DNA of 64,000 nucleotides, taken from Schmidtea polychroa. Taxonomy: Eukaryota. The notes beneath the pieces are model-generated. The model ran no database searches, was not told where the DNA came from, and was given only the letters and a program-made list of their open reading frames with translations. Position 1 is the first letter of the stretch; each line of letters begins with the position of its first letter. The stretch spans positions 242,420,001 to 242,484,000 of the forward strand of contig CM097885.1 of the NCBI GenBank assembly GCA_044892525.1, in the 5' to 3' direction. Shown here one piece after another: positions 26,833 to 63,789 of this stretch. The position numbers and the translations under genes are program-made.

Positions 26833-29800
26833 CAGCGGTTGCCAAACTTTTTGACCTCCCGGACCAGTTAATTCATAATTCAAATCCCGCGGACCACTAA
26901 TAGATTTTTTAAGTGCTAAATATATTTAGAAAAAAAATTTGATCAAAGAACACATAAAATGTACCTAGTTAGTAAAACGAATCTATTAATAATAAACCAT
27001 AATAAAATAAATTAAACAAAAACTGTACAAACAAAACAATTGAAAGATGGTTTAAATATATCAAACCTTTAGTGTTATACATTCCTAGTGTGATGGATGT
27101 TCCTGCCTACTTGAAATAAAATTATGGATATTTGGATCCAATGTTGTTACTGCAAGACGGAGAACTGCATTTATTTCAAGCCGAGATCGGTACCGCGTTT
27201 TGATAACTGTGAGAGACGAAAAGGCCTTTTCGCACAAATAAGTTGTGGAGAATTCTATCAAAATTTTCATCCCATGTTCACTAAGCAAAAGACTTTTTAT
27301 GGAAAGCCAAAACTGAGATCTTGATAAGGATGCTTGAAATTTAAATTTAAGAGTTTCATCGGACGATAGGTCGACGAGGCTTTCTTTTAGATACATGCTT
27401 AACTACTATCCTGAATTTTCGCTGCAAACGGATCTATTATCCACATATTGCCATTTCTGGGATCTTCATTCTTTGGGTAATAACGAGCAAAAGATTCTGT
27501 GAGTGATTCCAAGTGCTTTTTAACTAGGGTCACCACTTGCCGGTTAACATCATTCTCGCTCATGTAATCATCAAAATTAGAAAACATTTGCAGATCGTCT
27601 TCAACCAAAAGCGTTTGCCACAGTAATATTTTCTTTTGAAACGCATCCATTTTACTTCGTAGTGTGAACACGTCCTTAAGTTGTCCTTGCAAAGATATGT
27701 TTAGTTCATTTAACAGGGAAAAAATATCTGCCAGGTATGCAAGCTTTGCTAGCAATTCATTGTCTGACAAGCATTTTTGCAATTTCGGATTATGTTGCTG
27801 CTGGAAAAATAATTTGACTTCTTCCCGCAAGGCAAATAGTCGGGTCAATATTTTGCCCCTAGACAGCCATCTCACCTCAGCATGCCGTAGAAGATGAGTA
27901 TACTCGGAACCCATGTCTTCACAAAGAGCCTCAAATATTCGATAATACATTTGATAAGACATTTGATAATACTTCGTGTAGTTCTGGGGACATTTGTTTC
28001 GCCGCAAGTTGTTCTCGATGTATAATGCAGTGTGTAGATAAAATGTCTGGGTGACCAAAATTCTTCACCTTTACAACGATTTCTGAAAGATGTCCAGTCA
28101 TATTTGCGGCACCATCTGTGCAGATCCCAATACATTTTTTCCAATCAATTTCATGTTCCCGGAAATAACCATTAAGCGCTTCGAAGATCTCAGAGCTGGT
28201 TGTTCTACCCGGCAAATTAAGGGCACATAATAGTTCTTCATGTAACTCTCCTTCACACTCAACCCTCACAAAACAAAGAAGAAGTGCTTTGTTTTTAATG
28301 ACCGTAGATTTGTCAAGTTGGATTGAATAAAATGAAGAATTTTTCACCATTTTTATTATCTGATTTTCAATGTCTTCGGCCATATCTTCGATTCTGCGCT
28401 TGATAGCATTATTAGACATAGGAATTGCTTTCAATTTATGAACAGCCTGCATTCCTAAAATCTGTTCACAGGCTTTTAACATGAATGGCTTAATTAATTC
28501 TTCTCCAATCGTGAACGGCTTTTTGCATTTCGCGATCTGATTTGCTATGAGATAGGAAGCCTTTAGTGATGATTTATCTTCCATGGTCATTTTTCTTAAA
28601 GCAAATACTTGCTTTTGCATATTTTCATGCATTCTTTTAAAATATTCTAGCGGTTTTTCTGCTAAATCCGGGTGTTTTGAATTCAAGTGTCTTTCTAGTT
28701 TTGAAGGTTTTAATGCATCGTTAGATAGGCTTTCAGAACATACAACACAGAGAGGCCGTGGACCCAGCTCACTGCCAGGTTTTTCAACGAATCCAAATTT
28801 TAAGTAGTGGGAATAATATTTCCTTGATAAATTGTGTTTTTTCTTCTCTCCACCTTCCGTTCCAACTTGTTTCCTTATGGTGCCCGATGAAGACTGTGGA
28901 ATTGCTGATTTATTGATCATTTCACGGTTAGGTTCTGTATTATTAACGTTATTATTATCGTTCTCATTACCTTTTGCACTACTAAAGAAATGAAAAATAT
29001 TCTTTTGCTTTTTTTCACTCATTATGGGGTTAATTTATTTGAATCTAAAATAAAATGAAAAGAAATTTAGAAAAGTCAAACTTATTTTATCACATTAACT
29101 TAAATCAAATCAAATAAAAGAAAAGATTAAATTATATTTTTACACAAAATTAAGTAAACTTACACAAATTTAAGTGGATTTACAAACTGAATGGATATAA
29201 TAAACTTAAAAAAATAAAGTAGAAGAGCGGCAGCAGTGATGAAAACGATATAACTTAAATAAAATAAAGCTATATACTTAAAATTTAAAACAAACTAAGT
29301 ATACTTATAGAAAATTAAGTTATTAAAAAATATAATGGCGAAATTGGAGGATTGTCCTGGTTAATATGCTAAACAGGGAGGAACTAAAATAAGAATCTCC
29401 ATACTATAGACAAAATTTTGCAAATAAAACTTAATAATAAATTTATTTTCTTTTTTCTGCTTTTTATAATTTTATGTTTTTATTGATATTTGTGTAAAAT
29501 TACTTAATTTTGTGTAAGATTACTTAATTTTGTGTAAACTTACTTAATTTTGTGTAAATTTACTTAATTTTGTGTAAATTTACCAAATTTTTTGTAAGTT
29601 TATTAACTAAACTAAAAGAAAATATGTACATGGTAAAGATTTAATATCATACCTGTTTTAAACCTATTGTCAATGTATAAAAGTCCGAAACGAAAGAGTT
29701 CAGCATGGAACGATATTAGTTATTAAAAATAAATATTATGAAGCGCAAAATTGAAGTTATGTATTGACGTAACCGTGTTATTATTAATATGAAAAGTTTA

Positions 29801-33100: not shown

Positions 33101-33236
33101 ATTATACTTCCTTTTATATTATTTTATAAATTACTATATTTAGTATATAGTTTATACATAGTAATTATTTATTTATATTTATTATTTCATGCTTAACCCT
33201 TATGGCTATTGTTTTAACGAAACCAACCCCAACATA

Positions 33237-34716
33237 TATAGCATTTTCGCGTTAAATTAGACACTTTCGAATTTGAATTGGACACTTTAAAAGTTTAATT
33301 GGACATTTTAAAAGTTAAATTGGACACTAGTTATAAAACTGTAAAAGACGTGAATTTATATTTCAAATAAGACGACTTTAATCAAACATGATCTTTCAAA
33401 TTTTAAATCGCTCTCCTGCAACTGCTTTTGAAATGTTATTCATCATATGCATAACATATCCACAACAATCACCCGGGTTAATATTGTTCAAGCCATTACA
33501 GATAATTTCCCGTAGATTTACATTATCCACATTCGATGATAAAATATTCTTGACGAAACTCTTCAACTTACTCCATGCATTTTCGATGGGATTCAGCATG
33601 TATGAATAGGGTGAGAGAAATTTCAATACAAATCCGGTATCGGTAAAGATGTTTCGTATATAATCAGTTTTATGAATTTGAGCATTATCTAAAACTATCC
33701 ATGCACCATTGTAAATCTCATCGCGTTGAATAATCGCAATTAGCTCCATTAAAAAATCACCGAATATTGAACTTGTACAAGTACTGTCGTCAACAATACG
33801 GCTATGAATAATTTTGTTTGAATTCATTGCTGCAATAACAGTTACATTTCGACCTCTCACTGTTGGCATCACGATATTTGCCCTTGTTCCAATTTTTGAG
33901 CGGGCGGTAGTTCGACGAATATGTCGATTAAAACCACATTCGTCTAAAAAAATGCATTTCTCTTTCAGCGTGGGAGCATTTCGGTCAAAATCCAATGCGT
34001 TTCGTCGTCTCTATTCAACGGTTTCTGGTAAATTTACTCGTTCAAGTTCACGAGAAGCCTTTTTACATGTAATACGAAGCTTCTCAAGACATTTAGACAC
34101 AGACGTGGTTGATAAAGACACTCCTTCGGCTTCAAGTTTGTTTTTTATCATTTTTAAAGTAGTTTGATTATGGTTCTCCACAAAAAATTCAATTCGGTCT
34201 AGTATATTATCCGTAATTTTTGTTTTATTGTTACCACCTCTTTTTCCTACAATAAAAGTTCCTTTACGCTTGTAGTTGTTTATTATCGTTCTCGCGGTGC
34301 TCTCATTAATTCTGTAAGCAGCTGCTGCTTCCCTTATTGTTTTCCCGTCTACTGTGACCATGCTTATTAGCACTATCTTAACGTCCCGGGTGGATTTGGC
34401 ATACGATTTCTTTATAGGAGATTCGCGATTCTCATGCACATCCGCACCATCAATTTCAGTTTCTTCAATGTTTGATTCGTCTGAAAATCCATAATATCGG
34501 CCATTTGACATGATTAATGATTTCAAACGATTATATATATTTGGGCGGGAATTTAGTTGCTATGTTCTGTATATAAAGTATTTCTATAAAAACACATATA
34601 TTAAATAGTAGGGGTGTTATAACTAATGCCCAATTCAAATTTTAAAGTGTCCAATTCAAATTCGAAAGTGTCTAATTTAAAATGGAAAGTGTCTAATTTA
34701 ACGCGAAAATGCTATA
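33237..34716 (-). mobile_element. Tc1/IS630-type DD34E transposon with one premature stop
   Basis: TA duplication; long TIRs TATAGCATTTTCGCGTTAAATTAGACACTTTC with internal AATTGGACACTTT repeats; ORFs 34011-34526 and 33396-33995 share a frame separated by one TAG; catalytic FLDE, LDNA, NPIE with 34 residues between D2 and E. Confidence 0.93.
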
Positions 34717-34727
34717 TACGATGAGTC

Positions 34728-35430
34728 TGTTGGGTTTATGATACCAAGAAGTCGATCGTTGGTTACTCTGACTCCACGTGTCCAAAAAATTGATAAACAC
34801 AAACTCCCAACGTATATTTGTTTTATAGCAAATTTACAATTTTCAATAAATAATTACAACTTTTAGTTAACCACGATTTTGCTCGCAATTTCTGATCAAA
34901 CTTCACTCTGAAAAGTCTCGAGCTTGTGCGATTTAAAAATAAATTTCACCTTTTTTATTTGATTCCGTTCCCTGATCCGAACTCTTTTAATACTCCTTTT
35001 TATAACTCTTCAGTTCTTCTTATAATTCCCTTTAAGTTCTTAGCTTTGTTCTTCAAACTCCTATTGTCAGTTTCTTCTTCACTACCTGAGACTACTGCTG
35101 ATTATCTGAATTTGAAGTTTCCTTATATACTCCCATAATCGTTGTAACTGCCCCGTTTTTGACCTAATTGGTTGACTTTCTTACTTATCGTTCTCTAATT
35201 AGTTATTTCTGTTGACCGTTTTAGTAATTCCCCTTCTTTTGCTAACCCTCGTTTATCCGACTGTTTAGAAAATTGTCCTCTAAATTCCCAGTTTGTTTAT
35301 TCTCCCAAATTGCCGCGCTCGGGTTCTCCATTGGCTCGAATTTCCCATTAGCCAATTTATTAATCAATTAATAGACTGTTTTTCCATATTTGCCTGTTTT
35401 CGACCCGAATTTTTTTGAATTAAATCTTCA
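34728..35430. mobile_element. Solo-LTR family copy abutting the giant element
   Basis: Starts TGTTGGG, carries CTCTGACTCCACGTGTCC and CTCGGGTTCTCCATTGGC; right terminus degenerate. Confidence 0.6.
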
Positions 35431-35763
35431 TATTGTTGGGCTGAGCCGAAGGGTAACTGGGAAATCAGGTTAAACTTAACTAAAATAAAATAAAAAAATT
35501 AAAATAAATAGATTGACGAAAAAAATAAAATAGAATATAAGAAAAAGCAATAATTAGAAAATAAGAATTAAAACAAAAAATATAAAAATAAGAACAATTA
35601 AATAGGACAATAGAATGACGAAAAATAACGTAAAATGTAGCAGATAACAAAGAAATTAAGGAAAATAAATAAAAACACAATAAAAATAAAGAAAATAGGA
35701 AGAAATAACTCAAAAACAAGAAAAATAAATTAAATTAATAAAATAAGGCGGTACTCAATTCTG

Positions 35764-35851
35764 ATTGGTCCGCATAAACGAAAAATACCTATATAAGTAA
35801 ACCGCAAACTCACTATAGTCAATGTTAAAACCAAACCAATTACAGGTAAGA
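35764..35851 (+). promoter_or_regulatory. Putative LTR promoter and first splice donor
   Basis: ATTGG (reverse CCAAT) at 35764, TATATAA at 35790, CAG|GTAAGA donor at 35846 (second CAG|GTAC at 35903 after a 25-bp duplication). Function inferred. Confidence 0.55.
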
Positions 35852-37901
35852 AATAGTATTAAGTAATGTTAAATGTTAAAACCAAACCAATTACAGTTAC
35901 AGGTACTCGACAATCCAGACAATCAACCGACACTCAGACGACTATTAGGAACAGTTCTATCGACGATCAATTCATATAACCGATTTGATTAGTGTTTATT
36001 TCGGCTCAGCCTTTGGAATCACCGAATTTTTCAAACGATAAGTAAGGATGTGTTGCTATTGTAAAATTTGGTAAATGTTTTTCAAGGATTAAATATCTTA
36101 TTATATTAACGTAACATTTGAATAAAACTTCTCCATTCAATCTAAATTTTTTAATGGTAATATAGTTTCGTGAGTTAATTTAAAAGCTAATGATATATGA
36201 ATATTTATGATATGTTTTGTCATCGAACGTATTGATTATGATAAAATTATATTTGAGAAACGTGGAGTTGAGGAGACCCACGCCATGGTGTGAGGAGCCT
36301 TCGGGAGCTCAGCCGGCGGGTGTGGATCTCTTCAATCACGCAGCTGACGTGGGCCGGAATGTGGGGGTTTCCTCACGGGTCCGTCGCTGAAGGAAGTAAA
36401 ATGCTGCAAGCACGAGTTTAAAGTATAGAGGAATGCATTCCAATATTGAAAAGTAGAGTAATCTTAATTGAAAATGACTGAGGTGGCTACAAATTCTTAT
36501 TAGACATCACACTCTGAAATTTCACCCGACATCAGAAATCGTATACTTGCATCAACTGACACTCTATCTTCTAGTGGCAAAATATTCTTCTATCAAAACT
36601 CACGTCAATAGAGAAACTGAGTACTAATATGTTCATTAAGTGTAAAATCATAATATAGGAAGCATAAACGAAGATTTATTCAACAAAAATTTTAGTGCGA
36701 ATATATTTTTCAACAAACCCTTTAATTTTTTTTCATTTCTCCTGAAAATCTACAATAGTGGCAACATGAAGTTCTTTCTGTAAACGACACTTTCGACCAA
36801 TATAGGTGAAACTCTTTTGAATGAGTTGCTGTAAATATCCACGAAATCATAACATCCAAATTGAAAACGGAGGAAACTGCACATCATGAGAATAAATTCC
36901 AACGTCCATGCTCGATGAGAACTAATCATAGGTAGCATATTGAATAAACGAAATAAATCTAACTCGCTGTGTGAGATGATCAGCTGTAACCCTTTAACGT
37001 AGATAATGAGAGAGCATACGAGACCAGTCACACGCATTACTACACATAAATACACGCTTACATATGCCACATGCATTATTTTCCCAGTCAGCTAATGACG
37101 CTGAGAATAAAAGTTGAAGTACACGCACACGACGTAATTAACTCCGATCGATATCTAACTTTCAGATTCATGTTATTAATGATTTCTACGAGTGAGCTAT
37201 GCATTACCGGATGACTGTTATCAATTAGCTAGATTTTATAGATTAATTGCACAAGTAAATTCCATAACAAAAATGAATAGATCGATTTTTAGGATAGGAA
37301 TAAAATTCTAATCATACTCGAATCCTTAAAAATCTAATGGTAGCACAGTGATTGAATAGGTTTTCGATTTTCATATACCAATATGAGTTACGATTTGAGG
37401 TAATTAATTTAAGGAGCATTCCCGCGGCACTAGAGAACTTTGTTTTTACGTTTTTAAAGATAAATATCTGTATTCGAAAAGTTATATGTAAAAATGAATA
37501 TTAATTATTTAATTATGCAAACATTCTAATGTTTCCTAAACAATTTCTACGAAAACGATAACTCTAACGATCACTGGGTCAATACATTTGCGAGTCATCT
37601 TTCCCCTAAATATTTGAGAATCTCAGATAACAATAGGTAACGAATATTCTAAGTATAATCATAAAATTTTGGCAAAGTATTAATCAGATGTTAATTTCTC
37701 TTGCAACCCCAAATAGACATCCGAGAATTCACTGAGTGCAATTATAAAACACTATTTCTAACGGAACCATATCATTGACCTTTTATCCATTTTACTTAAT
37801 TTTTCGAAATTAATAAATGATCATGTCCCATGCTGGTTCAGTAGAAATCGCTGATCTTAATTCTTATTCTCATTGTTTTTTCTTTGTTACAGTTATCAAA
37901 A

Positions 37902-38645
37902 ATGTTGCCAAGCTCGAAGCCGTCGCTCAAACCCTGTTTCTCCTGTGCCGACAAAAACACCGTAATCCGAGAATTACAGGCCCAGATCGGTCGATATAGA
38001 AAGAAGATCGACGATCTGGAAGGTACATGGTTTAGCCCAGTACAAATGAAGGAGGTACAAAAGAAATTGTACCACAGCGAGCATTGTCGCGATGCTTTGA
38101 TAAGCGAAAGTAGAGCTCAGCGTAGCCTAATCAAAGAGCAGTCCGAAGCTTTACATAAAGTTTACGTTCAAGCCGCGACAACCCGGAAGATCGTTGGTAT
38201 CCCGATTAAAGAAGCGGACAATATCTTCCCCGTCCACCATGAACCTTCATTTAGTTCATCACCCTTATCAAAAAGATCTTGTCGTGAATGCGTGGAAGCC
38301 GACCTCTCCCCCAGGCCAACGGACGTACCTACTCCCGCCACCGGCAAGGTATTGCCATCAACCACGACGTCCTCAGAAATCTTGTCGGCCAACCCTTCGA
38401 AACCTAAACGTCGCCAATTATCCAGAGCGGAGCGTAAGAAGCGTCAACGTGAACGAGCAATCGTCAAACAATGGGAACTATCTTCCAACCACCCAAGTAC
38501 TTCGAATGATTCCCCCGTAACGATCGATCTAACTGTAGGGATCCCAGGGCGAATCATGTCTGCCGCTGGTGTGACGTGGGAGGAGAATGCCTCCGAGTTT
38601 TTTGATCTGGATGAACTATTGGCGGATGCAGAATGGGAGAAGTGA
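37902..38645 (+). CDS. LTR-encoded ORF (247 aa from ATG; 253 aa in track): CxxC + coiled coil, basic NLS-like tract, acidic/aromatic C-terminus
   Basis: Open in both LTRs; preceded by polypyrimidine acceptor TTGTTTTTTCTTTGTTACAG (AG at 37891-37892); followed by AATAAA at 38782 and a GT-rich tract. Confidence 0.75.
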   Translation: MLPSSKPSLKPCFSCADKNTVIRELQAQIGRYRKKIDDLEGTWFSPVQMKEVQKKLYHSEHCRDALISESRAQRSLIKEQSEALHKVYVQAATTRKIVGIPIKEADNIFPVHHEPSFSSSPLSKRSCRECVEADLSPRPTDVPTPATGKVLPSTTTSSEILSANPSKPKRRQLSRAERKKRQRERAIVKQWELSSNHPSTSNDSPVTIDLTVGIPGRIMSAAGVTWEENASEFFDLDELLADAEWEK

Positions 38646-39236
38646 GAATCGCAACACAATACAACCGTGCAGAGTGTTAATGGACAAATAAACTATCATG
38701 ACTCCTTTTCCTCTTAATCCATTTTCCACTAAGTGTACTCGTTATATAGTGCCATAATTATCTAGTGTATTATGATAATAGAATAAAGAAATTTGTGGGT
38801 TATTTCTTGTGGTTGTTTTGATTTAAATAGTTGCTAGAAAGGTTCAGAGTAGTGTTCACAAAGTGATTCATAAAGCGAGAGTAAATTTTGAGTTCGAGAG
38901 GCAATAGTCAATTTTGTGTCGAATTATGGGACAGGGTAGAGAGAGAATCTGATGGGGTAAACAGACGTAAGTCCTTCCATCGGCAGTCAGAAAGGGAAGT
39001 CGAGGCCTCAGTAAGGAGTAGTCCTAAGGTAGGGGCTCACCTGCTTACTGGAGTCTCGCCTGCATAGCACATTTCCAACGTGAAGCAATTCGCGGGTGCT
39101 ATGTTGGAGGGTAAGTTGTGCGGGGTCCTGCTCCGGGTTGACACGGGCGTATGTAGCGTGATGATATGGGCACGCATCCCCTAGACAAAGACGTAGATTG
39201 AGCAGAGTCAACCGAGCGCTACCCCAGCATAATTTT

Positions 39237-39254
39237 TGGGGGCTCAGCCGGGAT
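39237..39254 (+). promoter_or_regulatory. Primer-binding site, tRNA-Pro type
   Basis: TGGGGGCTCAGCCGGGAT matches the classical tRNA-Pro PBS TGGGGGCTCGTCCGGGAT at 16/18; lies 7 nt after the LTR end. Confidence 0.85.
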
Positions 39255-39521
39255 AATATGGAATTTCTGTCGAATAATGTGAATTAACCGGGATTATCGA
39301 TTTCAATTAGTGGGCGAATGCAAATTGACTAATGCCTATCGAATCTTATTATAAATCACGATTAGAAAATAATAGAATTAAAGATATAAATAAAGTAAAT
39401 AATAGGGAAATAGGATAAAAATAAAATAAATTATAACGATTTAAAAAGAAAAATGTTTAATGAAACAACCATTAATTAGCTGTATATTATTAAAAAAATT
39501 TTTTTTCTTTTCGCAATAGAC

Positions 39522-40007
39522 ATGACGGAATTCGCAGAACAGATGCAACAATTAATTAATTTCATTAATATAGAAAACGACCCTATTAGAACACTCATAC
39601 AAAAAAGAAAGCGAATCAACAGCATTCTACTCCAAGCAATCGGACACACACCAGTCGTACCTAATCACGTGTTATTGGCCGCAGGTTTAAGCCACTCAGA
39701 TGAAAAGATAAATCACGAAACAGTATATCAATGGTACCTAAAACGACTAAAAAACCCGGCCCTAAATCTAGAATACGAGCGAATAAAAGATCAACTACAT
39801 ACAATATCAGAGGCAATCGAACAAAAGATACAAGAGAAACTCACCAAATTACGAACCTGTCTGTCTTGCAATCTTCGCCCTATACGCATACTATTCTTAC
39901 CTTGTGGACACCTCAGTCATTGTGAAGAATGCGTGAAAGATCTGAAACGATGTACAATATGTAAAAATGGGATAAAAGAAACCCATATGGTTTATTATGG
40001 TGATTAA
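39522..40007 (+). CDS. IAP-type C-terminal RING (C3HC4) protein without BIR domains
   Basis: C-x2-C-x11-C-x-H-x3-C-x2-C-x6-C-x2-C at the extreme C-terminus (CLSC..LFLPCGHLSHCEEC..CTIC), the spacing of cIAP/XIAP-class RINGs; strong acceptor TTTTTTCTTTTCGCAATAG two nt before the ATG. Confidence 0.85.
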   Translation: MTEFAEQMQQLINFINIENDPIRTLIQKRKRINSILLQAIGHTPVVPNHVLLAAGLSHSDEKINHETVYQWYLKRLKNPALNLEYERIKDQLHTISEAIEQKIQEKLTKLRTCLSCNLRPIRILFLPCGHLSHCEECVKDLKRCTICKNGIKETHMVYYGD

Positions 40008-40572
40008 AACGACTAACCAGATGCAGTGACGTATATGCGCATTAAATTGATAAAAGACCTTTGAATACGAATATATGTACTTTTAAGTGTGAAGTAACTT
40101 TAATGTTTAATTTTAGTCTCAGGATAAAAAAAAATTTTTTTTTTGTTATGAATTAGATATTTTATCTCTTTTAATTACATCTTTGTTTATGAGATCGAAT
40201 GAAGAAGAATAAAACTAACGTGGAATTAGTCCCAATATAGGATATAAGAGTATAAACCGAGCCACCTTCGGGCGGTACGTTCTATCATAAGACAAACCAA
40301 TTGGGAGGGGATAACTGATCAACCCAAGTAAGAAGCGTAGGGCGGGGTACCACCGCAAATGATGAGAAGTTTCTACGACATGACTGATCACCATGCCAAT
40401 GTAGAAATGGATCATCGCGATCGTCGTGCGTTTTGAGCAAGGGGGGAAAGGGGAAACACTCTCAAGCGGTAAAGATTAAGTCGACAAATTAAAAGTAGAC
40501 AGAGAAAATGGTAATCTTGAGTAAAAGAGGAAAAGAGAAGTAGAATCATGCAGAGTGAGGAATATTAAAGCC

Positions 40573-40870
40573 GAGCTGTTAAATAGTCCAGCCGGTCAAG
40601 GAAAATGAAAACTGAGCTGTGAAAAGTCCAGCCAGTTCGGAGATATTGAGACCGAGTTGTTGAATAGTCCAACCGGTCAGAAGGAAGAAGATTGAGCTGT
40701 TGAATAGTGCCAGCCAGTCGTAAGATCGAGTTGTTGAATAGTCCAACCGATCAGAAGGAAGAAGATTGAGCTGTTGAATAGTGCCAGCCAGTCGTAAGAT
40801 CGAGTTGTTGAATAGTCCAACCGATCAGAAGGAAGAAGATTGAGCTGTTGAATAGTGCCAGCCAGTCGTA
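40573..40870 (+). repeat. Leader tandem array: 8 subunits of 34-41 bp forming a 74-bp higher-order repeat
   Basis: Core GAG(C/T)TGTTGAATAGT(G)CCA(G/A)CC starts at 40573, 40614, 40654, 40694, 40728, 40768, 40802, 40842. Confidence 0.92.
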
Positions 40871-41707
40871 AAGGCCTAGAAAAGCGAGAAATAGCAGTTA
40901 AGCTACAATGAGATAATATTTAAATTAATAGCGAAATGGAATATTAAAGCTAGCTAGAAACAAATTGAATGTAATTACGAAATTTGAGTTTAGAGAGGAA
41001 ATAAACGAGCTCGTGGAAAAGATGATGGATTATAGTGAAAGAGGGAGGGGAAAAAGGAAATGAATTAAAGAGATAATGGATAATAACGAATAGGTGAAAT
41101 GATGATAATGAGTAGAAGAGGAAAGTAACTAACTAATTAAAGGGATCCCAGTGAAGTAGAGAAACTCTACGGAATATTTTTTTGGTTGAACCGGGAAAAT
41201 ATATTTTTATTGGTTCCAGAGTAGAACCGAGTGAGATAATAGTAAATACGAAAAGTAAAATAGCGACAACAGCGCAAAAGGAATAGGAAAACGAAAGGGG
41301 GTAATAAGCAGAGACCGACAACGACCTATTTATACTATAATTGATAAAGATAGATAATTATTATGACTTTATAGATAATTGTTACTACCCCATATAGATA
41401 ATTTAAAATCGACAAAAAATATGGGCTGATGGGAAATTATAACCCGCGGAAAAGATTTCACAAAAGATAGGGGAAAAACAAACAGAAACCTAAAAGGTGT
41501 CTGTGTTTGAATGTTGCAGAAAGAATGATGAAGTCGTGTAAGCAGATGCAACACGAGATCATTCTTTCATTTTAGATATCAAATCAAGCCAGCCAATCAA
41601 GCCAATCCAGAACCTGCACAAAAGGAATTCGAGGAAATCGACAATCGACCAAGAATAAATCCATTCAGAACCCGCACCGAGAAACACAGCAACCGGAAGA
41701 CTCCAGA

Positions 41708-42825
41708 ATGGAAGAAGATACAGATAGCGACATCTCCAACTTCGAACGAATCACCGATATATTCAACCTCATAGTATTAGCAGCCATCTGTCAAGGACTA
41801 GTAAATCTCCTCAGAATCGCAGTAGCAGACTCATACCGAACAATTTACGAAGGAAACTTCATCAGAACCCAATCCACCCAATTCAGTAGCCGCTAATTAC
41901 AAGGAAGCGTAAGAAAAGAATCACGGATAAACCCCATCTCAGATCATCGAGTAAGTCAGGCGACGTATTATTTTCAGGAGACGAATTACAACAACTCAAA
42001 AGAGGACGATCTATTAAACATCAAAGAGGAATATCACAAGGAGCAAGAAGAACCAATCAAGTACCCATATTTGACCAAGAAAATCCCGGATATACCCCTA
42101 GTCGATCTCGAAGCAGAGAAAGTCTGTCCGATATCACTAATAGTTTAGCAACGTCAACCGAAGAATTATCAGCCCAAAGTTTAGTCACATCGTTAGATAA
42201 TTTAAAAGAAACAGACGAATCTAGAACACCAATCATGACGAATGTCGTAAAAACCGACGAGTATAAAGAGAAGTTCAGAGGAGAACCGTTCAATGGAAAT
42301 GCAAACAAGTTAGCAACGTTTATAACTAATTTTGAAGTTTATATCACGGTGTGTGGATGGACACCCGAAGCAATTAGCAAAAGGATGCCGTTGTTTTTGT
42401 GCGATAGCGCATTAGAAGTATATTTAGAAGCTAAAGAGAGAGATACGAAATTAGAGAAGTGGGAAGATATCAAAACATTCTTGAAGAAAACCTTCGGAGC
42501 CAGTAAGCCAATCAACCAGGCGTTGGGCGAACTAGCAAATAGGAAACAAAGAGCAAACGAATCGATAACATTATATGCCAGTGAATTACGGAGATTAGCG
42601 AAGAAAGCAATGAATGGAAAATTACCCGAGGAAAATTTGATCGGCTATTTCATAGAAGGATTACGCCGAGAAGAAGTAAGAGCCTCAGTAGGTTGTCAAA
42701 TGTGCAAAACGTTAGAGGAAGCCATAGATTGGGCTACAAGATGCGAGCTCCACCTTCCAGCTCAAATGAATATTATGCAAGAAGATGGGAGGAGAGCGAC
42801 AGCAACAATCAGGAACCGAAAATGA
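41708..42825 (+). CDS. gag: Gag N-terminal region and capsid domain (5' part disrupted)
   Basis: FNGNANKLATFITNFE..W..F..RKQRANESITLYASELRRLA..FIEGL fits a Ty3/gypsy capsid; the capsid frame is open from 41890, and an upstream ATG ORF at 41708-41896 is in another frame. Confidence 0.85.
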
Positions 42826-46030: not shown

Positions 46031-47470
46031 CGGAGGTACATATACGATCCGAGGCGAGGTGATATCAGGAGTAGTAGTGATTGAGTCCTATACGGTTGAA
46101 TTAAAAGAATACGAAGCGCAATTCGACGCAAATAATTATCAAATGAAGACCAACCCAGCATGTAGAGCTACGGAAAATGTATGCAAGACAGGAGTATCAA
46201 CTATAATCTATGAAGCTAATACCCAAAAATGCCGACTTCAACTGTTAAAAAGTGCTTTGTTTAACGAAGTAAAAGGAGAAATTTACGAGAACGAAAATGA
46301 CGAGGATGGAAACGAAAGAGTGAGAATGCGAAATGGAAAACCAATGCCACCATCTCCCAGAGAAAAAAGACTCTCAACGCAGAAAACACCAACAGCACTA
46401 ATCACCGACGATCCAGATCTAGGTATGAGATTTATCAATGAGAAAGAAACCACCAAATGCGACAGTATAGTATATAAAACCAATTACGCGGGTATCTATA
46501 TGTCGAGACAAATAATCGATAGAGCAGTGGGAAAGATAGCAACGGAGGACGTAAAACTATACTTATATGCAAATAATAAAATGGACTTTCTGTTTCATCG
46601 TGGCCAGACGACGTTGCAAAAAGTATATTACGATCTTATACAAAACGATTGTTCATTGAATAAAGAAATACTGAAAACAAAGCTGGCTATTGCGATAACG
46701 CACCCAGATAACACGATGCCATCACTCCCCTTACCAGATGGACATTTTGGTAGAATGGTAGGAGAAGTGATGTACACATACCAGTGTACCAAGACGTATG
46801 CACGAATGCCCGAAAAATCCACACTACCCGAAAAGAAATGTGCAAATGAATTAGAGATTCGTTATAAAGGACAAAATCGATTCGTCCAACCAGTCACCAG
46901 AATTATGAACCCAGTAGGCTTCTACCCAAATCTATTTAACTGTTCTAATGCGTACGGACCATTGTATGAAAGACCAGATGGAAAATGGGTAATGTTACCA
47001 GTAAAGTCTGTAACTGAGGAACCCAAAAAGTTCGGATTAATAGAACTCGCCACAGAGTTGGATTTCAAACCTATAGACGTGTCAAACGGTGGTATGTATT
47101 CGGCAGAAGATTTAGAAACGGCTCGGCTTAACGTATTATTCCCAGCAAGGCGAGAATCTATATTGTCGAACATGGTCACAATAACTGGGGGAACGAATTA
47201 CCAATCAGGCCCAAACTATGAACTACTGCTGTCACCAGACCATTTTCAACAAGCAACCTCAAATATGATGAAAGCAATGTGGGGAAGATTCTTAGTTTTT
47301 GGACAAATGATGGCCGGAATATTGGGGATCATACTCATAATTCAGATAGTCAGAGTAATACTAACACAAATGTTAGCTTGTTTTGATATATACAAGCGAG
47401 AAAAGAAAGTGAATTGGAAAATGATAGTAGGATTTCTACCATTCCTAGCTAAAACTATGGTGTTACATGG
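45990..47470 (+). CDS. env: Chuvirus-like (class III, gB-related) fusion glycoprotein domain, N-terminally truncated, in frame with pol
   Basis: Collinear motifs GSCNGGTY..GVVV, C..TENVC..STIIY, KLYLYANNKMDFL, LIQNDCSLNKEIL, GEVMYTYQC, CANEL..RFVQPVTRI, GGMYSAEDL..VLFPA and WGRFLVFGQMMAGILGIILII(TM), as recalled for chuvirus-type glycoproteins. Confidence 0.82.
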
Positions 47471-49805
47471 TCACTCAAAGGACATTCATCGAATAAAACG
47501 ATTGATTAAAATATTAACGAAGATTAAAGGAACCGACGAAGAAGTAGGCAGACGATTCCGGAAAGTAATGTACGATGAAGCAACAAGACGACAACTGAAA
47601 AAGAATAAGCCAAAATTTTTGGACCGATTCAGAAGTCAATCATCTAACAGCGATAGTGACGACGATGATAACGGGAACGATAAATGTCTATATCCAAACA
47701 GAAACCCAAACGAAAAACCAATGGAAACAGCACCATATTGGGAAAAGGAAAAGACAAACCCCTGGATCGCCAATGGAAGCTATATACCACCGGATATCGT
47801 GGGACCACAAGCCGCTTTGACCATGACACAAAATATGTATCCGCAATTACCGAGTCAACCCGGTATGCATTATATGCCAACGCGACGTACCAAAAGCGTA
47901 GATCAAGCAGATGACGTACGAACAATAGCAGCAATGAATTTACCTGGAGGTCCAGCAGTGACAGTCATGATTCAAATCAATGGTAAAGAAACCAATGCTA
48001 TGATAGACACAGGAGCTAATGTATCAGCGATAGCGATTAATCAAATTCCCAGTAAGCACTGGAAAGATATCGAATCAACAACAATCCACATCATAGCATG
48101 TAGTAAAGAAACAGTGGACGTGGTCGGAAGATGGTGGACTACATTGAGATACCAGGACAACGAAATTGAAACGTATTTGGCAGTAATACCAAAACTTAGC
48201 GTACCATGCATAATCGGAACGGATTTGATGCCAGAATTATTAAAAGAAGTGGTAATTGACTTAACAACCATGTGCTTAAAAGACAGAACAGGCAGAATAT
48301 GCAAAATGAATGCCATAATCAGATGTCCAGAGAAAATTGTGGTACCAGCAAAATCGCAGATGATTTGTCAAATAAAAGTGGATACGGGTATGGAAGGAGA
48401 AGTTATCTTTGAGCCAAGCAAATCATTCGAAAAGCGACGAGAGTTACCCCTCGCCAGAGAAATAATAACAATAAACCCAGAAGGGGTGATACCGATCAAC
48501 ATCACAAATTTTGAAGAGGAAGACAAAATCATCTACGAAAATGAAAGATTGGGAAAATTAACTCCAATGATCAATATCGAATTACCAAAAGTGACCAACG
48601 AGATGACCAAAGACGACGAATTATGGACAATCGACAGTACATTGTTAACGGATGCTGAAAGGAGAAAATTGCACCGATTATTAGTAGAATATAAAGATAT
48701 ATTCGCCATCTCAGATTTAGATTTGGGTACATGCGATGTTACCCTACATGCAATACCACTCATAGACGAAACCCCAATTGCATTGAGACCATACAAGCTA
48801 GCAGAAATGCAAAAAGAAATAGCCGAAGCAGAAGTACAAAAAATGTTAGACGCAAAAGTGATCGAACCAAGTTGCTCACCTTGGCAATTCCCAGTGGTCA
48901 TGGTGAAAAAGAAAGATGGCACCCAACGATTCTGTATCGATTATCGAAAGTTAAACGCAGTAACCAAGAGAGATACCTATCCATTGCCGGACATCAATGA
49001 AATGTTACTCATGTTGCAAGAGGCAGCATATTTTACTTCTTTAGATTTAAAAAGTGGATACTGGCAGATTAAAGTCAAAGATGAGGACAAAGAGAAAACA
49101 GCTTTCACGTTGGGACGAGATCTATATCAGTTCAGAAAAATGCCATTCGGACTGACCAACGCACCAGCATCATTTCAAAGGTGTATGAACTTTGTCACTC
49201 ATGGAATCAAACAATGTATGGTATATATTGATGATTTGTTAATCTATTCAGCGACATTTGAACAACATCTGGAGGATATCCGAAACGTATTTATTAGATT
49301 AAGACAATGGAAACTCAAGCTCAAACCCTCAAAATGCGATTGGGCAAAGGAAAAAGTCACGTTTTTAGGACACATAGTGTCAGCTAAAGGAAAGGAGCCA
49401 GATCCAAGAAACATTGAGAAAATAAAAACATGTCCAGCACCGAAAACTGTCACCCAAGTTCAGGAATTTCTAGGATTATGCGGATACTACCGCAAATTTA
49501 TCAAAAATTATGCAGGAATTGCAAAACCAATCCAGGAATTAGTAAAGAAAGACATTTCGTTCATTTGGGAAAAGGAACAACAAGAGGCGTTTGAAACGCT
49601 GAGAGACAAACTAATCGAAGCACCAATCCTCGTACACCCAGATTTCAAGAAGCCATTTCTATTAGCAACGGATGCAAGCGGGTACGCGGCAGGCGCGATT
49701 CTGGGACAATTAGACGACGAAGGTAAAGAGAGAGTAATCGGGTATTACAGTCGAACATTCAAAAAGCACGAGAAGAACTATTCGGTAACAGAACGAGAAG
49801 CATAG
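46059..49805 (+). CDS. pol: Env-PR-RT-RNaseH(5' part) continuous ORF ending at a premature TAG
   Basis: Protease IDTGAN at 48003-48020; RT PWQFPVVMVKKKDG..RFCIDYRKLN, MPFGLTNAPASFQR, YIDD at 49224; RNaseH LATDASG..ERE; TAG at 49803 replaces L of EREALA. Confidence 0.97.
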   Translation: MISGVVVIESYTVELKEYEAQFDANNYQMKTNPACRATENVCKTGVSTIIYEANTQKCRLQLLKSALFNEVKGEIYENENDEDGNERVRMRNGKPMPPSPREKRLSTQKTPTALITDDPDLGMRFINEKETTKCDSIVYKTNYAGIYMSRQIIDRAVGKIATEDVKLYLYANNKMDFLFHRGQTTLQKVYYDLIQNDCSLNKEILKTKLAIAITHPDNTMPSLPLPDGHFGRMVGEVMYTYQCTKTYARMPEKSTLPEKKCANELEIRYKGQNRFVQPVTRIMNPVGFYPNLFNCSNAYGPLYERPDGKWVMLPVKSVTEEPKKFGLIELATELDFKPIDVSNGGMYSAEDLETARLNVLFPARRESILSNMVTITGGTNYQSGPNYELLLSPDHFQQATSNMMKAMWGRFLVFGQMMAGILGIILIIQIVRVILTQMLACFDIYKREKKVNWKMIVGFLPFLAKTMVLHGHSKDIHRIKRLIKILTKIKGTDEEVGRRFRKVMYDEATRRQLKKNKPKFLDRFRSQSSNSDSDDDDNGNDKCLYPNRNPNEKPMETAPYWEKEKTNPWIANGSYIPPDIVGPQAALTMTQNMYPQLPSQPGMHYMPTRRTKSVDQADDVRTIAAMNLPGGPAVTVMIQINGKETNAMIDTGANVSAIAINQIPSKHWKDIESTTIHIIACSKETVDVVGRWWTTLRYQDNEIETYLAVIPKLSVPCIIGTDLMPELLKEVVIDLTTMCLKDRTGRICKMNAIIRCPEKIVVPAKSQMICQIKVDTGMEGEVIFEPSKSFEKRRELPLAREIITINPEGVIPINITNFEEEDKIIYENERLGKLTPMINIELPKVTNEMTKDDELWTIDSTLLTDAERRKLHRLLVEYKDIFAISDLDLGTCDVTLHAIPLIDETPIALRPYKLAEMQKEIAEAEVQKMLDAKVIEPSCSPWQFPVVMVKKKDGTQRFCIDYRKLNAVTKRDTYPLPDINEMLLMLQEAAYFTSLDLKSGYWQIKVKDEDKEKTAFTLGRDLYQFRKMPFGLTNAPASFQRCMNFVTHGIKQCMVYIDDLLIYSATFEQHLEDIRNVFIRLRQWKLKLKPSKCDWAKEKVTFLGHIVSAKGKEPDPRNIEKIKTCPAPKTVTQVQEFLGLCGYYRKFIKNYAGIAKPIQELVKKDISFIWEKEQQEAFETLRDKLIEAPILVHPDFKKPFLLATDASGYAAGAILGQLDDEGKERVIGYYSRTFKKHEKNYSVTEREA

Positions 49806-59665: not shown

Positions 59666-62600
59666 TGTTGGGCTGAGCCGAAGGGTAACTGGGAAATCAG
59701 GTTAAACTTAACTAAAATAAAATAAAAAATAAAATAAATAGATTGACGAAAAAAATAAAATAGAATATAAGAAAAAGCAATAATTAGAAAATAAGAATTA
59801 AAACAAAAAATATAAAAATAAGAACAATTAAATAGGACAATAGAATGACGAAAAATAACGTAAAATGTAGCAGATAACAAAGAAATTAAGGAAAATAAAT
59901 AAAAACACAATAAAAATAAAGAAAATAGGAAGAAATAACTCAAAAACAAGAAAAATAAATTAAATTAATAAAATAAGGCGGTACTCAATTCTGATTGGTC
60001 CGCATAAACGAAAAATACCTATATAAGTAAACCGCAAACTCACTATAGTCAATGTTAAAACCAAACCAATTACAGGTAAGAAATAGTATTAAGTAATGTT
60101 AAATGTTAAAACCAAACCAATTACAGTTACAGGTACTCGACTATCCAGACAATCAACCGACACTCAGACGACTATTAGGAACAGTTCTATCGACGATCCA
60201 TTCATATAACCGATTTGATTAGTGTTTATTTCGGCTCAGCCTTTGGAATCACCGAATTTTTCAAACGATAAGTAAGGATGTGTTGCTATTGTAAAATTTG
60301 GTAAATGTTTTTCAAGGATTAAATATCTTATTATATTAACGTAACATTTGAATAAAACTTCTCCATTCAATCTAAATTTTTTAATGGTAATATAGTTTCG
60401 TGAGTTAATTTAAAAGCTAATGATATATGAATATTTATGATATGTTTTGTCATCGAACGTATTGATTATGATAAAATTATATTTGAGAAACGTGGAGTTG
60501 AGGAGACCCACGCCATGGTGTGAGGAGCCTTCGGGAGCTCAGCCGGCGGGTGTGGATCTCTTCAATCACGCAGCTGACGTGGGCCGGAATGTGGGGGTTT
60601 CCTCACGGGTCCGTCGCTGAAGGAAGTAAAATGCTGCAAGCACGAGTTTAAAGTATAGAGGAATGCATTCCAATATTGAAAAGTAGAGTAATCTTAATTG
60701 AAAATGACTGAGGTGGCTACAAATTCTTATTAGACATCACACTCTGAAATTTCACCCGACATCAGAAATCGTATACTTGCATCAACTGACACTCTATCTT
60801 CTAGTGGCAAAATATTCTTCTATCAAAACTCACGTCAATAGAGAAACTGAGTACTAATATGTTCATTAAGTGTAAAATCATAATATAGGAAGCATAAACG
60901 AAGATTTATTCAACAAAAATTTTAGTGCGAATATATTTTTCAACAAACCCTTTAATTTTTTTTCATTTCTCCTGAAAATCTACAATAGTGGCAACATGAA
61001 GTTCTTTCTGTAAACGACACTTTCGACCAATATAGGTGAAACTCTTTTGAATGAGTTGCTGTAAATATCCACGAAATCATAACATCCAAATTGAAAACGG
61101 AGGAAACTGCACATCATGAGAATAAATTTCAACGTCCATGCTCGATGAGAACTAATCATAGGTAGCATATTGAATAAACGAAATAAATCTAACTCGCTGT
61201 GTGAGATGATCAGCTGTAACCCTTTAACGTAGATAATGAGAGAGCATACGAGACCAGTCACACGCATTACTACACATAAATACACGCTTACATATGCCAC
61301 ATGCATTATTTTCCCAGTCAGCTAATGACGCTGAGAATAAAAGTTGAAGTATACGCACACGACGTAATTAACTCCGATCGATATCTAACTTTCAGATTCA
61401 TGTTGTTAATGATTTCTACGAGTGAGCTATGCATTACCGGATGACTGTTATCAATTAGCTAGATTTTATAGATTAATTGCACAAGTAAATTCCATAACAA
61501 AAATGAATAGATCGATTTTTAGGATAGGAATAAAATTCTAATCATACTCGAATCCTTAAAAATCTAATGGTAGCACAGTGATTGAATAGGTTTTCGATTT
61601 TCATATACCAATATGAGTTACGATTTGAGGTAATTAATTTAAGGAGCATTCCCGCGGCACTAGAGAACTTTGTTTTTACGTTTTTAAAGATAAATATCTG
61701 TATTCGAAAAGTTATATGTAAAAATGAATATTAATTATTTAATTATGCAAACATTCTAATGTTTCCTAAACAATTTCTACGAAAACGATAACTCTAACGA
61801 TCACTGGGTCAATACATTTGCGAGTCATCTTTCCCCTAAATATTTGAGAATCTCAGATAACAATAGGTAACGAATATTCTAAGTATAATCATAAAATTTT
61901 GGCAAAGTATTAATCAGATGTTAATTTCTCTTGCAACCCCAAATAGACATCCGAGAATTCACTGAGTGCAATTATAAAACACTATTTCTAACGGAACCAT
62001 ATCATTGACCTTTTATCCATTTTACTTAATTTTTCGAAATTAATAAATGATCATGTCCCATGCTGGTTCAGTAGAAATCGCTGATCTTAATTCTTATTCT
62101 CATTGTTTTTTCTTTGTTACAGTTATCAAAAATGTTGCCAAGCTCGAAGCCGTCGCTCAAACCCTGTTTCTCCTGTGCCGACAAAAACACCGTAATCCGA
62201 GAATTACAGGCCCAGATCGGTCGATATAAAAAGAAGATCGACGATCTGGAAGGTACATGGTTTAGCCCAGTACAAATGAAGGAGGTACAAAAGAAATTGT
62301 ACCACAGCGAGCATTGTCGCGATGCTTTGATAAGCGAAAGTAGAGCTCAGCGTAGCCTAATCAAAGAGCAGTCCGAAGCTTTACATAAAGTTTACGTTCA
62401 AGCCGCGACAACCCGGAAGATCGTTAGTATCCCGATTAAAGAAGCGGACAATATCTTCCCCGTCCACCATGAACCTTCATTTAGTTCACCACCCTTATCA
62501 AAAAGATCTTGTCGTGAATGCGTGGAAGCCGACCTCTCCCCCAGGCCAACGGACGTACCTACTCCCGGCACCGGCAAGGTATTGCCATCAACCACGACGT

Positions 62601-63459
62601 CCTCAGAAATCTTGTCGGCCAACCCTTCGAAACCTAAACGTCGCCAATTATCCAGAGCGGAGCGTAAGAAGCGTCAACGTGAACGAGCAATCGTCAAACA
62701 ACGGGAACTATCTTCCAACCACCCAAGTACTTCGAATGATTCCCCCGTAACGATCGATCTAACTGTAGGGATCCCAGGGCGAATCATGTCTGCCGCTGGT
62801 GTGACGTGGGAGGAGAATGCCTCCGAGTTTTTTGATCTGGATGAACTATTGGCGGATGCAGAATGGGAGAAGTGAGAATCGCAACACAATACAACCGTGC
62901 AGAGTGTTAATGGACAAATAAACTATCATGACTCCTTTTCCTCTTAATCCATTTTCCACTAAGTGTACTCGTTATATAGTGCCATAATTATCTAGTGTAT
63001 TATGATAATAGAATAAAGAAATTTGTGGGTTATTTCTTGTGGTTGTTTTGATTTAAATAGTTGCTGGAAAGGTTCAGAGTAGTGTTCACAAAGTGATTCA
63101 TAAAGCGAGAGTAAATTTTGAGTTCGAGAGGCAATAGTCAATTTTGTGTCGAATTATGGGACAGGGTAGAGAGAGAATCTGATGGGGTAAACAGACGTAA
63201 GTCCTTCCATCGGCAGTCAGAAAGGGAAGTCGAGGCCTCAGTAAGGAGTAGTCCTAAGGTAGGGGCTCACCTGCTTACTGGAGTCTCGCCTGCATAGCAC
63301 ATTTCCAACGTGAAGCAATTCGCGGGTGCTATGTTGGAGGGTAAGTTGTGCGGGGTCCTGCTCCGGGTTGACACGGGCGTATGTAGCGTGATGATATGGG
63401 CACGCATCCCCTAGACAAAGACGTAGATTGAGCAGAGTCAACCGAGCGCTACCCCAGCA
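59666..63459 (+). repeat. 3' LTR (3,794 bp)
   Basis: Direct repeat of the 5' LTR, followed by ATAT. Confidence 0.98.
62132..62875 (+). CDS. LTR-encoded ORF, 3' LTR copy
   Basis: Same ORF as 37902-38645 with five amino-acid differences (R>K, G>S, S>P, A>G, W>R). Confidence 0.75.
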   Translation: MLPSSKPSLKPCFSCADKNTVIRELQAQIGRYKKKIDDLEGTWFSPVQMKEVQKKLYHSEHCRDALISESRAQRSLIKEQSEALHKVYVQAATTRKIVSIPIKEADNIFPVHHEPSFSSPPLSKRSCRECVEADLSPRPTDVPTPGTGKVLPSTTTSSEILSANPSKPKRRQLSRAERKKRQRERAIVKQRELSSNHPSTSNDSPVTIDLTVGIPGRIMSAAGVTWEENASEFFDLDELLADAEWEK

Positions 63460-63789
63460 ATATTGTTATTTTTTTTATTGAATCATAAAGTACATAGAAT
63501 AGACAATGTTATGGAATTACACATCGGGCAAATGGCCTTCACTGCTTTGCTGCCACATACGCACTCTTTTGTTGAAATTTTCCATGACCATTCAATATAA
63601 ATGTGGATGAATTTCGTTTGATTCAGTGTTTAATTTCCTCCTGTAATGCACGGGTGGTTGTGTGCCTGTTGACATAGACCTTTGACTTCAAATAACCCCA
63701 TAAAAATAAATCTAATGGTGTTAAATTACACGATCTGGAGGTCAATTCTGATCACCGAGAGAGTACATGACCAGGAAATGCGCCATGTA

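Follow-up and report, generated by a model that had tools for sequence, protein, structure and literature searches.

Does the long terminal repeat (LTR) of a giant planarian retroelement hold a complete spliced gene, and what would the product of such a gene do for the element? The question is raised by a window of 64,000 nucleotides from Schmidtea polychroa (assembly GCA_044892525.1, contig CM097885.1, positions 242,420,001 to 242,484,000), for which the original prediction had proposed that each LTR of an element carries a self-contained gene with one intron, encoding a transactivator-like protein. All positions given here are those of the window, and all features lie on its forward strand.

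The host element and its LTRs

The window contains a 28.0-kb Burro-like Gypsy element (35434-63459) flanked by the 4-bp target duplication ATAT (35430-35433 and 63460-63463). Its two LTRs are 99.6% identical and about 3.8 kb each. The 5' LTR (35434-39229) is 3796 bp long with TG..CA ends, and the 3' LTR (59666-63459) holds the same gene, with a TATA box at 60020, donors at 60076 and 60272, a hairpin at 60485-60628, an acceptor at 62122 and the open reading frame (ORF) at 62132-62875. Seven nucleotides past the end of the 5' LTR, the sequence contains a primer-binding-site-like 18-mer (39237-39254), which we take to resemble tRNA-Pro. The interior encodes Gag, CCHC zinc knuckles, protease, reverse transcriptase (RT), RNase H and then integrase (order PR-RT-RNase H-IN), together with ankyrin, TRAF/MATH and RING cargo domains. 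A Monjiviricetes-type fusion glycoprotein (PF24664, aa 79-418 of its ORF) lies between gag and pol, in the same frame as protease and RT; in the window copy the internal polyprotein is split into several ORFs. The element thus resembles the planarian giant Gypsy elements Burro/GYPSM1 (PMC6431247), which are near 30 kb and have long LTRs, a Gag with CCHC knuckles, a fusion glycoprotein before the protease in one frame, the order PR-RT-RH-IN and ankyrin, TRAF/MATH and RING cargo, although its 28.0 kb is slightly below the >30 kb quoted for Burro. The section on these elements in PMC6431247 describes no LTR-internal gene.

The individual signals of the original prediction were found where it had placed them: a reverse CCAAT box (35764) and a TATA box (35790) in a block at 35764-35797, a donor GT at 35846, an acceptor AG ending at 37892, an ATG at 37902, nine nucleotides past this acceptor, that opens a 247-aa ORF, an AATAAA at 38782 with a GT/T-rich tract downstream of it, and the AG of a RING acceptor ending at 39519. 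These LTR signals exceed chance expectation. Sixty copies of the family were fetched for comparison, and the CCAAT/TATA block was recognised inside the fetched 3.5 kb in 49 of them. As the proposed spread of the gene by solo LTRs would have it, 31 of the 60 consist of a solo LTR flanked by a 4-bp duplication.

Selection on the LTR open reading frame

The 247-aa ORF (37902-38645) had at least 150 matches in a genome search (the best 150 of 6616 candidates), with 73-100% identity. No internal stop was present in 134 of these best 150 matches, which as top-scoring rows are biased toward intact copies; the openness of the 60 fetched copies is not an independent result, because all of them were drawn from rows without stops. 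More informative is the pattern of substitution. Pairwise dN/dS among 58 distinct full-length sequences, calculated after dropping 60 of 1653 pairs as saturated, fell from 0.31 at dS<0.05 to 0.10 at dS 0.5-2 (1042 pairs, which are not independent of each other). The ratio pN/pS was lowest in the helical core (0.04), the acidic tail (0.07) and the basic stretch (0.12) of the predicted protein, and the linkers were at about 0.5. The other five reading frames of the region contain 4-14 stops on average.

A second family (B, the window family being A) shares 35-40% identity with the window family, has the same layout and at least 150 matches, and shows a dN/dS of 0.08 (15 copies, 92 of 105 pairs). 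Older, more decayed relatives of the ORF are present in the genome as well. The original prediction had made conservation in diverged LTR copies decisive for its gene, and indeed the basic and acidic motifs are kept down to about 30% identity.

Could the ORF nevertheless be a passenger that is open only since the family is young, next to splice signals that arose by chance? The two LTR ORFs of the window element differ by five substitutions, all of them amino-acid changing, and dN/dS among near-identical copies is 0.31, as such a passenger would show. This young-pair pattern is, however, also the expected outcome of decay after insertion, with which the five differences fit, and a passenger does not account for a dN/dS of 0.10 at dS ~1.2, the stops in the other frames, a second family with the same layout, or the exact loss of an intron described below. 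We regard this explanation as largely refuted already and give it very little credence. Purifying selection on the ORF thus argues that it is a genuine gene under selection, contained entirely in the LTR, as had been proposed.

Two likely introns in the LTR gene

The proposed single intron, which joins 35845 to 37893, did not fare as well: an exact-match pattern search of the genome found no copy with this junction. (Genome pattern searches reported here required exact matches unless stated, so diverged copies are missed.) A second donor is present at 36042, and it is kept in 48 of the 49 copies with a recognised promoter, as compared with 43 of 49 for the first donor at 35846. The sole exception is the locus L063, a 1874-bp LTR that has both U3 and U5, lacks a poly(A) tail and is flanked by a 4-bp duplication; here position 36041 is fused exactly to 37893. 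This locus is best read as reverse-transcribed spliced RNA, because shifting the cut by one base in either direction fails to reproduce the observed letters. No partner LTR was found in the 40 kb before it or the 10 kb after it, and a strict genome-wide pattern for the 36041>37893 junction returned L063 as the only copy. The large-intron junction is therefore seen in the DNA of one genomic copy, from which we infer splicing in RNA. Contigs from seven sequencing runs showed no joint at the predicted splice sites among those listed; the runs that reached the LTR resembled DNA or were of presumed type, and this carries no weight for or against splicing.

The exact fusion in L063 makes two introns, and not a single one, the most likely structure of the gene. 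In this sequence-based model, exon 1 (35821-35845, 25 nt) is followed by intron 1 (35846-35896, 51 nt), exon 2 (35897-36041, 145 nt, without an ATG and with its 3' end fixed by the L063 junction) and intron 2 (36042-37892, 1851 nt, GT..AG), which is exactly absent in L063. At the end of intron 2, a YAG stands 7-11 nt upstream of the ATG in 57 of the 60 copies; in the 25 copies that have diverged most, a large part of the intron cannot be aligned. The predicted mRNA comprises 25 + 145 + ~910 nt (1.1 kb) and ends near 38800. Short, partly spliced Burro transcripts that start in the LTR were reportedly described by Grohme et al. 2018, and LTR splicing may be in print already.

Intron 1 is absent in six of the 49 copies, spread over at least three clades. 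We rejected these losses as proof of splicing, because a deletion between the direct repeats of intron 1 yields an identical product. In family B, both LTRs of one element and a third locus are missing precisely a GT..AG segment of 103-104 nt downstream of donor 2; this is weaker evidence, because the segment ends share a 3-base homology. A search for the family-B junction between exon and ATG, allowing one mismatch, gave five matches, none of them that junction: two were unrelated and three represented another intron loss.

Donor 2 and the short intron 1 had no place in the earlier description of this LTR, nor had two features of intron 2, a hairpin at 36258-36395 and a second AATAAA at 36121.

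The exon-1 duplicate and the likely transcription start

Intron 1 ends in a 25-nt copy of exon 1 (35872-35896). A duplicate with at least 90% identity is present at this position in 42 of the 43 copies with donor 1, with a mean identity of 0.99 as compared with 0.37 and 0.29 in the 15 nt flanking it on either side. Exon 1 occurs in 17 different forms, and the duplicate matches it nonetheless. In most copies the duplicate starts at TATA+29 to +31, and it ends at AG. Family B repeats this geometry with unrelated sequence at 18 of 22 loci. Immediately before the duplicate stands a base that does not match the original in 17 of 41 cases in family A and in 10 of 15 in family B; in 8 of these 15 family-B cases it is G, although this base could also be inherited.

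The position of the duplicate likely marks the RNA start at 35821 (TATA+31). If so, the genomic RNA would start at 35821 with intron 1 spliced out, and minus-strand cDNA would run to the cap, might gain an extra base there and would land in the 3' LTR at the end of intron 1. Exon 1 would thereby overwrite the end of intron 1, and intron 1 would survive copying. This extra base might be untemplated or copied from the cap. Untemplated base addition is described for Tf1 RT in part of PMC3185545. An alternative origin of the duplicate is gene conversion between close repeats, which does not predict its two boundaries (TATA+29 to +31 and AG). Because the putative start precedes the gene, the gene would lie in R/U5 and not in U3.

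Candidate poly(A) signals and a covarying hairpin in intron 2

Two AATAAA words follow the putative start. The first (36121-36126) lies within intron 2 and is a candidate promoter-proximal poly(A) signal. Of 48 family-A copies, which share ancestry, 43 have it 67-86 nt past donor 2, with 0.06 occurrences expected per 25 nt. In family B, an AATAAA is found at TATA+299-364 in all 18 loci listed. The second, at 38782, forms with its downstream GT/T-rich tract (38782-38830) the candidate 3' end of the ORF mRNA; 54 of the 61 aligned sequences retain this AATAAA. Exact-match genome patterns detected no poly(A)-tailed genomic copy ending at either signal. If the 3' LTR transcript ends at the 36121 signal, R is ~0.3 kb long and the ORF lies in a 3-kb U5; if it ends at 38782, R is ~3 kb long. 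Retroviral R regions are 15-250 nt according to a section of PMC12789967. Before it gets to the primer-binding site, genomic RNA has to read through one or two AATAAA signals in the 5' LTR, so the read-through that had been postulated for this LTR still holds.

The best conserved part of intron 2 is a 138-nt double hairpin (36258-36395), a candidate response element. Its predicted pairs are formed in 99.1% of alignment cells, two-sided changes occur in 8 of 48 pairs, and its folding z is -3.6. Nine of 500 shuffles reached eight two-sided pairs, and none of 500 reached its covariation score. Rfam gave no match over 35400-42300. In family B, the final intron upstream of the ORF contains a hairpin, found by pattern in 20 of 21 loci, with two-sided change in 10 of 24 pairs (0 of 500 shuffles). 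Its sequence is unrelated to that of family A, and the family-A model does not detect it; because of this, the resemblance between the hairpins of the two families is one of position and shape.

Further downstream, U5 contains a highly conserved structured block (38960-39135) with a donor-like GTAAG at 38968, which is kept in 58 of 61 sequences. Another donor-like site, at 39112, was rejected because it is mostly not conserved, and so was an additional promoter close to the distal poly(A) site, because its TATA-like word at 38743 is kept in just 12 of 61. Beyond the LTR, a pyrimidine tract and the acceptor AG (39519) precede the RING ORF (39522-40007; whole block 39490-40007), and this acceptor is kept in 7 of 7 copies with a 5' LTR. 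The RING acceptor could be served by donor 1 but equally by donor 2 or by the GTAAG at 38968; an exact-match genome pattern found no copy in which exon 2 is joined from donor 2 to RING.

The predicted protein and its possible targets

The 247-aa protein contains a CxxC motif and a predicted helical hairpin (~13-99), a disordered linker, a basic helix (166-195) and an acidic hydrophobic tail (232-247). A structure model built from 41 sequences had a mean pLDDT of 64, with a confident helical hairpin (13-40 and 46-99), a basic helix (175-195) and the rest disordered. Families A and B and all older relatives keep the helical N-terminal domain together with the basic stretch, and the sequence of the basic helix differs between A and B. 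The terminal pattern D-hydrophobic-x-x-hydrophobic-hydrophobic-x-D/E is present in both families and in most older copies.

Pfam gave no match for the window protein and scattered weak matches only for the 41 family members, and PDB sequences gave no match. No homologue was detected among 5.8 billion proteins, queried with the single sequence and with the alignment and also at longer lengths, or among 1.84 billion representative proteins. Fold searches returned generic coiled coils only, with no match at E<=0.001, and an Atlas search gave a best score of 0.85 to an unnamed entry, which is a lead only. Taken together, the protein, domain and structure databases searched contained no homologue or specific fold match outside this genome. 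No description of the ORF was found in the literature searched, the primary Burro paper lying outside that search.

According to the sequence, one possible role is that of a promoter-acting transactivator of the foamy Tas or HTLV Tax type, close to the original prediction, which would reach U3 through DNA or a host factor and activate by its acidic tail while the hairpin serves some other use. The conserved terminal acidic-hydrophobic pattern speaks for such a role, as do the nine D/E among the last 25 residues, the tail pN/pS of 0.07, the basic NLS-like stretch and the absence of any match in the window protein to six consensus patterns for a leucine-rich CRM1 export signal. The conserved tail looks more like an acidic activation motif. 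However, the domain, fold and PDB searches found no DNA-binding fold or family, the retention of intron 2 and the position of the hairpin are left unexplained, and an activating tail is equally compatible with an RNA-tethered, Tat-like role. We consider a promoter-acting protein rather unlikely, yet the main rival of the reading favoured below.

Comparison with known regulatory systems

The intron-2 data point to another class of regulators. Only one of 49 copies lacks intron 2, which indicates that the replicated RNA normally keeps this intron, though the protein needs its removal. The problem of a retained intron next to a spliced protein mRNA is solved by Rev and by CERV, as described in parts of PMC12789967 and PMC10309623. 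CERV of the C. elegans Gypsy/Ty3 element Cer1 is a novel nuclear protein made from a spliced mRNA, with a helical hairpin, a candidate NLS and cysteines like the LTR protein, whose own nuclear location is a prediction, and it is needed for export of unspliced Cer1 genomic RNA, as reported in parts of PMC10309623. The LTR protein differs in having 247 aa and in being encoded entirely within the LTR. Homology to CERV found no support: the H, M and G domains were not found in the model, which shows a helical hairpin and two short helices only, and a search among proteins of 463-2000 aa gave no match, which weighs little.

Rev, Rex, Rem and Rec are small regulators from spliced RNA with a basic helix and a structured RNA in intron-retaining transcripts (sections of PMC12789967), features that the LTR gene, as read from its DNA, appears to share. 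The intron spliced for the protein is exactly lost in L063 and kept in 48 of 49 genome copies (DNA only), and the structured RNA in the retained intron covaries in families A and B, as a candidate response element. In contrast to these proteins, the LTR protein has no canonical export-signal pattern and no sequence homology to them, and gene and candidate element both lie within the LTR, near the 5' end. With Tat/TAR, Tax and foamy Tas it shares basic and cysteine motifs, a candidate activation tail and possible positive feedback on the LTR; their genes lie in the internal region, and TAR stands at the start of R (same sections), whereas the LTR hairpin is intronic, some 440 nt past the putative +1.

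The precedent that had been offered for an LTR-encoded regulator, MMTV sag, proved a poor fit. Sag and HIV nef, as treated in PMC12789967 in part, are indeed coding sequences within retroviral LTRs, but both are located in U3, before the transcription start, and sag is a membrane protein of type II. In the window element the ORF lies 2.1 kb downstream of the TATA box and putative +1, and promoter, introns, ORF and poly(A) signal are all in one LTR. Xenopus Xretpos/1A11, considered as a further LTR-ORF precedent, was rejected, being unconfirmed in the relevant part of PMC4585706.

Discussion

The best reading of the LTR gene is that of an RNA-bound autoregulator of the Rev/CERV/Tat type, because a basic helix is found beside a hairpin confined to an intron; on balance we give it an even chance. 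The sequence evidence for it includes the lowest dN/dS in the helical core (0.04), the tail (0.07) and the basic helix (0.12), a covarying hairpin in the last pre-ORF intron of both families, and the divergence of both hairpin sequence and basic helix between the families. The protein would oligomerise by its coiled coil, bind the hairpin via its basic helix and recruit a host factor via its acidic tail. RNA that keeps intron 2 would thereby gain export or poly(A) read-through, so that the likely nuclear product would promote the full-length, intron-retaining RNA of the element. Full splicing would remove the hairpin and the proximal AATAAA and give the 1.1-kb mRNA.

Against an autoregulator stand the missing export-signal pattern in the window protein and the resemblance of the tail to an activation motif. 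The conserved predicted basic helix may be an NLS alone. By analogy, the hairpin could bind a host factor by itself, like the MPMV CTE, which works through a host factor alone (part of PMC12789967).

This last point leads to the possibility that the gene is real and has its effect elsewhere, by countering host silencing or by working on a host pathway, as the RING, TRAF or ankyrin cargo might, the hairpin being a constitutive transport or stability element used with host proteins. The element does carry host-modulating domains (PMC6431247), Burro transcripts rise upon knockdown of SMEDWI-2 in a planarian (reported in part of PMC8532177), and constitutive transport elements need no viral protein (part of PMC12789967). 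On the other hand, the protein had no likeness to any host family in the searches, and the gene, unlike the cargo, comes first in the transcript and adjoins the cis-elements. We consider action elsewhere improbable, more so than action on the promoter.

In the most far-reaching reading, these planarian-type proviruses would have their early/late switch packed entirely into the transcribed LTR. One promoter would give a short RNA that stops at the intronic AATAAA as well as a spliced mRNA encoding an orphan Rev/Tat-like protein and, after binding of the hairpin by this protein, read-through genomic RNA; intron 1 would be rebuilt each cycle by strand transfer at the cap, and solo LTRs would be autonomous regulator genes acting in trans on intact elements. 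We put this forward tentatively, as less likely than not.

The gene encodes an orphan protein, and the candidate RNA target of this protein lies in the LTR as well. LTRs are usually treated as non-coding control regions, whereas here one appears to hold a complete, intron-bearing, selected gene downstream of its likely start. Every solo LTR could express this gene, since a start at 35821 puts it in R/U5, and what are usually regarded as inert scars, the solo LTRs, would then represent many copies of a regulator gene. Genomic fossils yield base-level predictions of the start site and junctions. CERV is the one demonstrated case found for the invertebrate Gypsy group in the literature searched, and the LTR gene offers a concrete protein and a candidate hairpin for how invertebrate Gypsy elements may pass intron-containing genomic RNA beyond splicing, early polyadenylation and nuclear retention.

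Other open reading frames in the element, the window and the genome

The Burro-like Gypsy element carries a Monjiviricetes-type fusion glycoprotein (window 46143-49805) in frame and upstream of the protease, an arrangement already known from Burro. Two further ORFs in the window are DNA-transposon-like, at 27085-29022 and, between 110-nt inverted repeats, at 33230-34723; they may be related to hAT and Tc1/IS630. Elsewhere in the host genome, an LTR-like repeat of another kind was found at two loci (L102 6490-8803 and L101 1786-2859). It has two small ORFs, one with a similar basic stretch (weak profile matches, E 0.001-0.008), and the region also carries a remnant of the ORF of family B, the second LTR family.

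Variant copies of the LTR

The intron-less LTR L063 (G000:C3:38413100-38419600, minus strand) is preceded by a polypurine-tract region of ~30 nt that opens with the first 7 bases of the LTR. A 4-bp duplication encloses this region and the LTR together, and the copy looks like an insertion with an internal deletion. At G000:C2:173675587-173709393, an LTR fragment has become a tandem array: its 2.8-kb unit, which contains the conserved intron hairpin, is present in at least 13 copies. Four family-B loci (L115, L117, L124 and L137) seem to have an additional exon of ~250 nt at about TATA+370 to +625, apparently with a 103-nt intron on one side and a third donor on the other. The ends of this exon appear to be self-complementary.

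Candidate RNA elements of the LTR

A structured U5 block at window 38960-39135, with a core 93-99% conserved in 61 sequences, is predicted to fold into three hairpins (z -4.06) and had no match in Rfam. Since contig coverage over it is very deep, the block is probably common to other LTR families; it may serve in packaging or read-through. Exon 2 (~36000), the intron hairpin (~36305) and the primer-binding site (39237-39254) all contain the motif GGCTCAGCC or a variant differing from it at one base, and the first bases of the LTR (window 35434-35450) are complementary to this motif. Such pairing could bring the two RNA ends together.
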